Shown here piece by piece: positions 54,472 through 56,581 of a stretch of DNA of 64,000 nucleotides. The notes beneath the pieces are model-generated. The model was not told where the DNA came from. It did not search any database and saw only the letters and a program-made list of their open reading frames with translations. The stretch is from the sequence record MT446386.1; one strand, given 5' to 3'. Position numbers and translations under genes: made by a program. Within the stretch, counting starts at the first letter, position 1; each line of letters starts with the position of its first letter. The DNA comes from Escherichia virus TH06.

Positions 54472-54550
54472 TCAATGGGTGCCTCTGATAAAGGGGCACA
54501 ATTTAAAGGTTAATTAGATGAAAGGGTTTACCCTTCAGGTGGATTAGAAA

Positions 54551-56581
54551 ATTTGTGGCATCGTATTAGCTGGCGGTAATCTGTCAAGCACTGATTTAGA
54601 CGTATTCAACCAACTCTTTTATGCTGGAGTATTCCGAGGACAACATTCCTCCGGTATCTTTGGTCAGCGTAAAAGCACTAAGGAAGTCTTCACTTATAAA
54701 GAAGCTCTTCCTTCTTTCGCATTCATCCTACAAGATGAGTACAAGAAGCATACCACTGGTGAAACAGCGTACACTGTAGCGCCTTCATGGATTGTTGGTC
54801 ACAGCCGTCATGCAACGAAAGGTGCAGTTAACGCCAAGAACGCCCATCCTTTCCAACATGGTAACATCACTCTGGTTCATAACGGAACCTTGATGGACCA
54901 AGATCTGTTACCTGACAGCAAAAACTTCGAGGTAGACAGTGAGAACATCTGCCACTCTATTAACACTATTGGTGCAGAAGAGACTATTCAAAAGCTGGAT
55001 GGTGCTTTCACCTTAATCTGGCATGATGCTTCTGACAACCGTCTTCATATCATCCGTAACGAAGAGCGTCCTTTCCATCTCGCACGTTGTAACAGAGATT
55101 GGTTTGGTGCTTCTGAAGAAGATATGTTGATGTGGATTCTGAAGCGTTCTAAGTCTCACAAAAACCGAATTGACGAGCACTTTGAATGTAAAGTTGGTAC
55201 AGAGTATATCTTTGACATGTCAAACAACAGTATGACTCTAGTTGAAGAGGTCGCCCACGAGCTTCCGGTTTTTACGGTAATCAATCGTTGGGGCAATTAC
55301 TACTCGAACAACTACAGCCAAAGCAATTATCAAAGTTCCTCAAAAAGCAGTACAAGCAATCCTTACGACACGAAGCCGGGAGTGACAGCGGCAGACGTTC
55401 GTCGAAGAAACGCAGTGGTAAGTCAAAACAAAATCGCAAGCGATCGAAACATTGATATTCGCCGCGATATGACTGTGGAAATCACTCCGCATGAGTTTGT
55501 TCCTTATGCAACTACTGGTGCTGTTCCTTCTCGTGGTAAGATGATTGGCTATATCTACGATGAGAAGTCTCAAGAGTACATCGAAGGTGATGTTCATAAC
55601 GTAGACATTAAGGCTTATCAGGATGCACTGAAAGACCCTAAAATTGTTTACCGTGGTACAGTATCCTGCATCTCCGAAGTCAATGCTATGGTCCGTTTAG
55701 TGATCACAGCAGGTCGTTTTGTTGACCCATCTCTGGAGAAAAAGGAGCCTGAGTCAACTACTGCTGACTTCGATGATGATATCCCTTTTGATATGAATGA
55801 TAGTTTCGTCAACAAGAATGGCGTTACTATCACTCGTAAATTCTGGGAAGCACACTCTCATGGTGATTGTGGTGGTTGTGACAAGCACATTGATTGGAAG
55901 GATGCACCTAAAGCAGTCTTCGCATATCAGTGCTATTGGCATCCTGAATGTCTGGAAGGTTTGACTAAACCTAAAGAGGAAGAGGAGGAGGAAACTCCTA
56001 TTGGTGTTTGTGAAATCTGCGGTGAAGTTAAAACAGAAAATGAGTTCGATGATGAACTTAGTCGTCTTCGTGGTGAAGATATCTGTAAAACCTGCGCTGT
56101 AGAAGTAAAGAAGAAAGTATCTAATGCTACAATCAAAGATGGTTATGTCTGGATTAAAGCAACAGATACAACAAACGCCCGTCGTCCTGAGTTTGCTTTA
56201 CGTGTAACTGAAGAAATGATCGGTCGTATGACTGTATTACCTTCCTCAGCGAAACAGACAGGCATCACTCTGGAGGATGTTGTTGATGCTTATGTTGAGA
56301 AACGTAGCAACAGTATTTTTGCAATCTCAACTAAGCCAAAAAAGGAGGAACCTGCTGAGAAAGCAGGTGTGTTTCCTGAATCACGAACAGCTCTCCGCAA
56401 AACTGTTGTCAGCTTCGACGGAAACCGAAGCACTGACTTCACCAAAGCCATGTGGTCAACCCTCGGATACTGCTCAGAGTGTTTTAAGCAGATTCCGTGG
56501 CGCGATGCTGAAAGTTGTACGCTTGGTTCTATGAATCAAGTTTATTGTAATTCTCCTAAATGTTCATTGAATAGAGGTTAA
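54551..56581 (+). CDS. class II (Ntn) glutamine amidotransferase domain fused to a Cys-rich C-terminal region
   Basis: CGIVLAGG ... GHSRHATKG...NAHPF; no ATG/GTG/TTG before the catalytic Cys (ATT at 54551, in-frame TAG at 54545); SD AGGTGGA at 54536..54542; C-terminal CxxC pairs. Confidence 0.5.
   Translation: MCGIVLAGGNLSSTDLDVFNQLFYAGVFRGQHSSGIFGQRKSTKEVFTYKEALPSFAFILQDEYKKHTTGETAYTVAPSWIVGHSRHATKGAVNAKNAHPFQHGNITLVHNGTLMDQDLLPDSKNFEVDSENICHSINTIGAEETIQKLDGAFTLIWHDASDNRLHIIRNEERPFHLARCNRDWFGASEEDMLMWILKRSKSHKNRIDEHFECKVGTEYIFDMSNNSMTLVEEVAHELPVFTVINRWGNYYSNNYSQSNYQSSSKSSTSNPYDTKPGVTAADVRRRNAVVSQNKIASDRNIDIRRDMTVEITPHEFVPYATTGAVPSRGKMIGYIYDEKSQEYIEGDVHNVDIKAYQDALKDPKIVYRGTVSCISEVNAMVRLVITAGRFVDPSLEKKEPESTTADFDDDIPFDMNDSFVNKNGVTITRKFWEAHSHGDCGGCDKHIDWKDAPKAVFAYQCYWHPECLEGLTKPKEEEEEETPIGVCEICGEVKTENEFDDELSRLRGEDICKTCAVEVKKKVSNATIKDGYVWIKATDTTNARRPEFALRVTEEMIGRMTVLPSSAKQTGITLEDVVDAYVEKRSNSIFAISTKPKKEEPAEKAGVFPESRTALRKTVVSFDGNRSTDFTKAMWSTLGYCSECFKQIPWRDAESCTLGSMNQVYCNSPKCSLNRG

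Follow-up and report, generated by a model that had tools for sequence, protein, structure and literature searches.

Probable initiation at an AUU codon of a class-II glutamine amidotransferase gene in Escherichia virus TH06, and a hairpin abutting its Shine–Dalgarno sequence

In well annotated bacterial genomes about 99.95% of the annotated starts are ATG, GTG or TTG, and the only confirmed non-canonical starts in Escherichia coli are those of infC and pcnB, both AUU (bioRxiv 10.1101/063800). Initiation at AUU amounts to about 0.1–3% of that at AUG, and after non-canonical initiation the N-terminal residue is Met (bioRxiv 10.1101/063800). At the thrS–infC junction a stop codon is followed by 3 nt and then by AUU, and re-initiation accounts for about half of initiation (PMC3592434). 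The present analysis concerns a glutamine amidotransferase gene of Escherichia virus TH06 (sequence record MT446386.1) in a stretch of 64,000 nucleotides, referred to as the window, in which all positions are numbered. Translation of this gene very probably begins at AUU 54551.

The window belongs to a phiEco32-like coliphage (Kuravirus, Gordonclarkvirinae); identity of the region is 99.9% with Escherichia virus TH38 and 97.9% with phage phiEco32. The gene is the orthologue of phi32_83, annotated as 'glutamine amidotransferase' (ABY52884.1/YP_001671828.1), with 97.9% nucleotide identity and identical leaders. The start of the coding sequence (CDS) had already been placed on the equivalent of ATT 54551 in the GenBank records of phiEco32 (2008), SU10 (2014) and Bas91 (2025); an ATT start call for a phi32_83-type gene is thus not new. 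The phiEco32 annotation of phi32_83 carries no comment on the leader, and no experimental support was found for it. A literature search on ATT or AUU starts in phage amidotransferases, which did not cover the phiEco32 genome paper, found no discussion of ATT. Two aspects appear to be undescribed: the fact that ATT is used repeatedly within this family of phage glutaminases and the accompanying hairpin that abuts the Shine–Dalgarno sequence (SD).

The initiation region contains an open reading frame (ORF) of nine codons and the following elements.

54518–54547, + strand: mini-ORF of nine codons (MKGFTLQVD) closed by TAG; it shares the frame of the amidotransferase, and 3 nt separate its end from ATT.
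54537–54543, + strand: SD AGGTGGA, 7 nt upstream of ATT.
54545–54547, + strand: in-frame TAG, which closes the mini-ORF, blocks an upstream in-frame start and belongs to the GGAT(T)AG element that is conserved in hairpin-type initiation regions.
54551–54553, + strand: ATT, inferred to be the initiation codon; relatives have ATG in its place, and it is the annotated start of the CDS in phiEco32, SU10 and Bas91.
54554–54556, + strand: TGT, the catalytic N-terminal Cys (Cys1) of the Ntn glutaminase domain; C1-G2 is invariant and alignments of homologues begin there.
54551–56581, + strand: complete CDS of the phi32_83 homologue, made up of ATT, 675 further codons and a stop codon.

The codons run from ATG (54518–54520) through AAA GGG TTT ACC CTT CAG GTG GAT to TAG (54545–54547), followed by AAA (54548–54550), ATT, TGT and GGC ATC. 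A re-reading of the letters confirmed what an earlier sequence-only reading had given, namely MKGFTLQVD-stop-KICGIV with the Cys codon preceded only by ATT and an in-frame TAG. That reading had also considered AGGTGGA to be well spaced for ATT, which holds at 7 nt; its coordinates, given there as 54536–54542, are 54537–54543. Between TAG and the Cys codon there is no in-frame ATG, GTG or TTG, and the next canonical in-frame start lies 112 codons downstream. Out-of-frame starts overlap ATT-TGT (54553–54579): TTG 54553 opens an ORF of eight codons and GTG 54555 one of four codons. Initiation of the amidotransferase at either of them was rejected, since both are out of frame and lead only to these short ORFs.

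The arrangement resembles that of E. coli infC, in which AUU also stands behind an SD and a stop codon lies 3 nt before it (UAA GGU AUU in infC, UAG AAA AUU in the phage; PMC3592434); low initiation, discriminated by initiation factor 3 (IF3), would be expected for the phage gene as well. The upstream frame of infC is a real gene, thrS, whereas that of the phage is a nine-codon ORF of doubtful function. The AUU of infC is autoregulatory through its own product, whereas the phage gene encodes an enzyme with no connection to translation and has a hairpin directly next to its SD. Like pcnB, which encodes poly(A) polymerase, the phage gene would be that of an enzyme kept at a low level via AUU, and relatives of pcnB start with AUG, GUG or UUG (bioRxiv 10.1101/063800), as relatives of the phage gene start with ATG, ATT or TTG. 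The two proteins are unrelated, however, no hairpin module has been described for pcnB, and ATT recurs in the phage family (14 of 85 clusters). Judged from its sequence features, the amidotransferase would rank among AUU-initiated genes: the ATT occupies the position of an ATG, no canonical start is usable, constraint begins at the AUU and the SD is suitably spaced.

The view that the product is a class-II (Ntn) amidotransferase with Cys as residue 1, put forward in the sequence-only reading, was borne out by domain searches. Pfam GATase_6 (56.4 bits, cutoff 27) and GATase_7 (28.7 bits, cutoff 25) matched the N-terminal ~200 residues, and the class-II glutaminase domain spans about 54554–55330. 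A search of the PDB with the single sequence gave no match, whereas a family profile matched the class-II glutaminase domains of GlmS (1xff, E = 2.7e-11), PurF and AsnB. Position 1 of this profile pairs with residue 1 of the mature E. coli PurF chain, and its VHNG pairs with the VHNG of GlmS. C1-G2, R28-G29, an H-x-R-x-A-T-x-G block, AHPF, V108-H109-N110-G111 and D128 were invariant in 12 diverse homologues, and nearly all tblastn alignments in 333 phage records started at query residue 1, the Cys. The phage protein shares with GlmS, PurF and AsnB the fold family, the catalytic residues and a Cys1 that would be exposed by removal of Met. It differs from them in being only ~20–25% identical, a relationship at the profile level, and in its C-terminal part. 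The C-terminal ~415 residues had no Pfam match, and no sugar-isomerase, PRTase or synthetase domain was found there. This part (about 55330–56578) contains three Cys-rich blocks (for example CGGCDKH...CYWHPEC, CEICGEV...CKTCA and CSECFKQ...CNSPKC) that resemble zinc-ribbon-type motifs; a distant ATT homologue, L022 (IMGVR_UViG_3300042988_000055), likewise ends in a Cys-rich block.

A start further downstream was weighed against these results. The codons concerned are as follows.

54890–54895, + strand: TTG 54890 and ATG 54893, the next canonical in-frame starts, used by several database annotations; their products are without Cys1 and 112 residues of the fold.

The codon at 54890, named as ATG in the sequence-only reading, is TTG; the ATG is at 54893. 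Internal codons are given as the CDS start by automatic annotation in Paul, KBNP1711, EP335, SU7 and many other records, RefSeq and GenBank entries among them, or the region is left unannotated; the CDS of Paul begins at the equivalent of ATG 54893. If such a start (TTG 54890, ATG 54893 or another) were the real one, the N-terminal glutaminase part would be a decaying untranslated relic. This is extremely improbable. As judged from codon differences, the 112 codons between Cys1 and the next canonical start are translated and under strong purifying selection at the protein level: comparison with three viruses of other genera gave 41–42 synonymous and 22–25 nonsynonymous codon differences, and divergence was 13–15% at codon positions 1 and 2 versus 50–55% at position 3. 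The catalytic residues are all invariant, the region is conserved across four genera and two families, and the ATT arrangement is found with intact domains in many other lineages. A product from 54890 would have neither Cys1 nor R28 and would be without half of the Ntn fold. Homology confined to the part downstream of 54890, which had been named as the outcome that would speak against an ATT start, was not what was found, as both homology and purifying selection start exactly at the Cys codon.

Because gene callers ignore ATT, most database entries for this gene are truncated and have no catalytic Cys. Deposited proteins that begin at internal starts have up to 113 residues missing, Cys1 included, and in a sample of 60 records most of the annotated ones had no feature over the ATT start. 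Function prediction by homology and expression of the 'annotated' proteins are misleading where they depend on such entries.

To survey start codons across the family, relatives were gathered from viral and metagenome collections by protein similarity, independently of the leader, and duplicates were removed, leaving 137 unique loci. The codon before Cys1 was ATG in 100 of these, ATT in 23, TTG in nine, GTG in three and ATC in one, with one further Met-Cys-Cys locus; AUU is thus more frequent in this family than GUG and UUG. In all of eight distant phage homologues (36–56% amino-acid identity) the order was SD-ATG-TGT(C)-GG and the annotated CDS began at that ATG, which is the codon that ATT replaces. 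When the loci were clustered at 70% identity, 14 of the 85 clusters contained ATT. In a neighbour-joining tree of a 180-residue domain ATT fell into 14 separate clades, each with a sequence starting at ATG or TTG as its nearest neighbour (for example L163 with ATT and L162 with TTG, 86% identical); a conservative count gives at least five clearly non-homologous initiation regions with ATT. The spacing from SD to ATT had a median of 7 nt and an interquartile range of 7–7, compared with an interquartile range of 5–8 in ATG loci, and the SDs of ATT loci were slightly stronger than those of ATG loci. As a control, 78 bacterial glmS genes (49–96% identity) were anchored at Cys1 in the same way; 77 started with ATG, one with GTG and none with ATT (Fisher p = 1.5e-5). 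The proposal of AUU initiation made in the sequence-only reading is strongly supported by the ATG at the same position in relatives, by the SD at 7 nt and by the recurrence of ATT in the family.

The same survey bears on a second proposal of that reading, read-through of the stop codon with a self-cleaved propeptide. Translation would then start at ATG 54518, pass the TAG and yield a propeptide of 12 residues that is removed autocatalytically, as in Bacillus subtilis PurF. Class-II amidotransferases with a propeptide exist. The B. subtilis PurF structures 1ao0 and 1gph were among the matches of the family profile, every member of the clade has the mini-ORF in the frame of the enzyme, and TAG is a rare stop codon in this genome, ending one of 40 long ORFs. 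B. subtilis PurF, which offers another route to an N-terminal Cys without a Met-Cys start, needs a continuous frame from an upstream canonical start, whereas the phage frame is broken by TAG and the relatives have no propeptide. No uninterrupted frame runs from an upstream canonical start through the Cys codon, the in-frame TAG standing two codons before ATT. In 22 of the 23 ATT loci the frame holds no canonical start between the upstream stop and the Cys codon; this stop is TAG, TAA or TGA and lies at a distance of 3–22 codons, so that read-through cannot explain the family pattern. Neither a suppressor tRNA nor a conserved identity or context of the stop codon was found; the only tRNA in the window is tRNA-Arg(TCT). 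The distant relatives are all Met-Cys with no upstream in-frame ORF, which represents the ancestral state. Conservation of the leader is at the level of nucleotides: synonymous variation is absent, the only two changes seen being nonsynonymous, and in Aeromonas phage BUCT695 the mini-ORF is without an SD. Across the ATT lineages the constant elements are SD, spacer, ATT and Cys, which fits initiation at ATT and not amber read-through. Read-through, which the variable upstream stops and the lack of a suppressor tRNA disfavour, is accordingly held to be very improbable. Reassignment of the amber codon was also rejected, as one long ORF ends in TAG and no suppressor tRNA was found.

Conservation of the leader was analysed next to that of the protein. 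The leader is present in 98 phage records, and a region of 91 nt is 100% identical in 65 of them.

54503–54558, + strand: leader of 56 nt, found letter for letter in three genera, Kuravirus, Nieuwekanaalvirus and Suseptimavirus, and conserved to about 87% in Aeromonas phage BUCT695.

Over 53 nt (−48 to +5 around the Cys codon) identity was 53 of 53 in KBNP1711, EP335 and SU7, whereas the flanks were 64–81% identical and third codon positions about 50% identical. BUCT695 keeps 46 of the 53 leader nucleotides, although its protein is only 52% identical. A sequencing or assembly error in which the true codon is ATG, also raised in the sequence-only reading, would need just one G-to-T difference; because 98 phage records sequenced independently, several metagenome contigs and the distant relative BUCT695 all carry ATT, its probability is negligible.

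Against KBNP1711, 54503–54558 forms an island of exact match between 200-nt flanks that are just 66% and 74% identical. The perfect identity over 53 nt is not unique, since 41 exact runs of at least 53 nt against KBNP1711 occur in these mosaic genomes; because long exact runs are common, the status as an island and not length alone is telling. Five such islands against KBNP1711 were found in the 64-kb window, the leader being the second longest, and two of the others hold the published promoter consensus of gp36. These two, at 8626–8690 and 26182–26232 (flanks 56–78%), contain TATACATTA, the reverse complement of the phi32_gp36 promoter consensus tAATGTAtA (PMC8948821), and are probably minus-strand middle or late promoters. 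A further 45-nt island lies at 36379–36423 (flanks 68–72%), and a 46-nt exact stretch at 56644–56689 (flanks 71–72%) lies in a small ORF, 56584–56817, just downstream of the amidotransferase. The leader itself was searched for a phi32_gp36-dependent promoter upstream of the gene; compared by eye with the consensus (PMC8948821), AAAGGTTAA/TAATTAGAT is a poor match, and at this site the ATG relatives and BUCT695 carry AAATGTAA(A/T). Neither a sigma-70 nor a gp36-type promoter within the leader gave a convincing match. A search with the covariance models of Rfam 15 gave best scores of 14–17 bits against gathering scores of 44–70, corresponding to no known cis-regulatory RNA family, and a riboswitch or other known RNA family was rejected on this result.

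The mini-ORF raises a further alternative, in which AUU is used mainly by ribosomes that have ended the mini-ORF at UAG 54545, the mini-ORF being a functional part of the leader through termination and re-initiation. The geometry of stop, 3 nt and AUU is the same as in thrS–infC (UAA GGU AUU), where re-initiation is about as frequent as de novo initiation (PMC3592434). The mini-ORF is intact and in frame in both variants of the leader, a weak SD, AAAGG, lies in the window at 54505–54509, 8 nt before its ATG, and in most hairpin lineages some ORF ends 4–32 nt ahead of ATT. Short ORFs ending near starts would, however, be expected from chance alone in compact phage operons, and the other lineages with a hairpin and ATT have no comparable mini-ORF, the nearby stop being in a different frame. 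BUCT695 has no SD ahead of the ATG of the mini-ORF, in which it carries two substitutions, both of them nonsynonymous. The string TAGATGAAAGG is also present in GAP52, which uses ATG, and its ATG is out of frame there, so that the string predates the ATT arrangement. We therefore regard the mini-ORF as probably incidental on account of the changes and the missing SD in BUCT695 and of the string in GAP52. Termination-reinitiation as the main route is unlikely; it may make a contribution. A conserved peptide encoded by the mini-ORF was rejected: the sole two changes are nonsynonymous, the SD is absent in BUCT695 and the ATG is older than the arrangement.

Folding of the leader gave a short hairpin at the 5' edge of the SD.

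54522–54535, + strand: hairpin H1, AAGGG-UUUA-CCCUU, found by folding, extendable to 54520–54536 with one bulge and ending 1 nt before the SD.

The ATT clade is longer here by about 24 nucleotides than its closest relatives with ATG (about 65% identity), and these nucleotides supply the 3' arm that pairs with the old SD-like AAGGG, together with the new SD and the spacer. The same architecture with wholly different stems was found in the ATT lineages L022, L067, L076, L140 and L101. The module consists of a stem of 5–7 bp, a non-conserved loop of 3–5 nt, a linker of 0–1 nt, AGGNGGAT(T)AG and ATT 7 nt past the SD, and it occurs once in the window. A hairpin of at least 5 bp ending at −16/−15 was present in seven of 15 ATT lineages, in one of 100 ATG loci and in none of 12 TTG/GTG loci (Fisher p = 1.1e-6). 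Shuffled leaders attained the observed hairpin stability in at most 1% of trials. In an alignment of the stems anchored by hand, 39 of 39 cells paired and changes on both sides were seen in five of seven pairs. As an independent check, a pattern that fixed only GGAGGATAG-N4-ATTTGTGG and took no account of the hairpin retrieved two new contigs, both with an abutting hairpin and with new stem sequences.

An alternative hairpin, H2 (GGUUUACC/GGUGGAUU), would sequester the SD and was the minimum-free-energy structure of one fold. It was rejected because both BUCT695 substitutions break H2 while H1 is kept and the middle base of the SD is free to vary (T, C or A in BUCT695 and L022); in a wider context H1 is the minimum-free-energy structure. 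In L022 the stop codon of the upstream gene falls within the loop of the hairpin abutting the SD. On this contig the ATT-started class-II GATase gene is grouped (266–3103) with a class-I GATase-like gene and a gene for a COOH-NH2 ligase.

Several points weigh against the assignment of the start to AUU 54551 or against a role of the hairpin. Literature searches found no N-terminal sequence, ribosome profiling or reporter data for the amidotransferase. The SD of the window, AGGTGGA (−5.9 kcal/mol), is not especially strong, and the out-of-frame TTG 54553 and GTG 54555 could compete with ATT for it. The mini-ORF, being in frame, leaves read-through or re-initiation formally possible. The tally of independent ATT origins rests on a crude neighbour-joining tree of the 180-residue domain. 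The complete pairing of the stems arises partly by construction, because the alignment was hand-anchored on hairpins picked by folding. Finally, the hairpin lineages have one type of initiation region in common and could represent a single old lineage.

For AUU initiation, the events may be pictured as follows. The 30S subunit would be positioned by the SD AGGUGGA 7 nt upstream of AUU 54551, and the initiator formylmethionyl-tRNA would pair with AUU, leaving the third position mismatched. Deformylase and methionine aminopeptidase would then take off the formylmethionine, which should be removable because Cys is a permitted small second residue, and the catalytic Cys1 would be exposed. Since AUU is a poor start codon that IF3 discriminates, the output of enzyme would be low, a few percent or less of that from AUG, and sensitive to IF3. 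The ATT probably arose from an ancestral ATG by a single G-to-T change and would have been maintained with the fixed spacing of 7 nt; in the TH06 clade and several other lineages it appears to have been maintained alongside the short hairpin at the 5' edge of the SD. Candidate roles of this hairpin, all of them speculative, are stacking on the helix formed by SD and anti-SD, insulation of the SD, stabilization of a sparsely translated mRNA and assistance to re-initiation. Why ATT should be preferred to GTG, TTG or a weaker SD is likewise a matter for speculation.

A more far-reaching proposal is that hairpin, SD, 7 nt and AUU make up a dedicated initiation module that phages have repeatedly evolved or exchanged for this glutaminase, which sets a very low level of enzyme dependent on IF3 or on the stage of infection and in which the hairpin acts mechanistically. 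We advance it tentatively, as possible but doubtful. If it were true, viruses would possess a start-codon sensor of the infC kind, in which the hairpin, by stacking on the SD:anti-SD helix, holds the 30S subunit until the weak AUU is accepted. An AUU start fixed in about 100 isolates together with a covarying hairpin constitutes a natural and genetically tractable system in which one could study how and for what reason selection favours weak start codons and what effect a structure next to the SD has.

Two amidoligase genes and an ATP-grasp ligase gene share the operon of the amidotransferase. Upstream is an Amidoligase_2 gene (53368–54471), with a COOH-NH2 ligase gene further upstream, and downstream are two small ORFs followed by the ATP-grasp ligase gene. 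This setting suggests the products of the adjoining amidoligase and ATP-grasp genes as candidate partners of the predicted glutaminase. The sole tRNA of the window, tRNA-Arg (anticodon TCT), is encoded at 45208–45283. Between the amidoligase gene and the leader one further structure was noted.

54479–54499, + strand: intercistronic hairpin GUGCCUCU-GAUAA-AGGGGCAC of 8 bp, directly after the amidoligase stop codon, terminator-like with a poor U-tract.

In SU7 and ECBP2 this hairpin has a different yet pairing stem (GGGCGC.../...GCGC), and it is entered as 'terminator' in some GenBank records. In BUCT695 an unannotated frame at ~2390–2500 ends just before the leader and encodes a helix-turn-helix-like peptide (..LSQSKVAKLVGCSQTHVSKLELGKYSL*), which may be a small XRE-type regulator.

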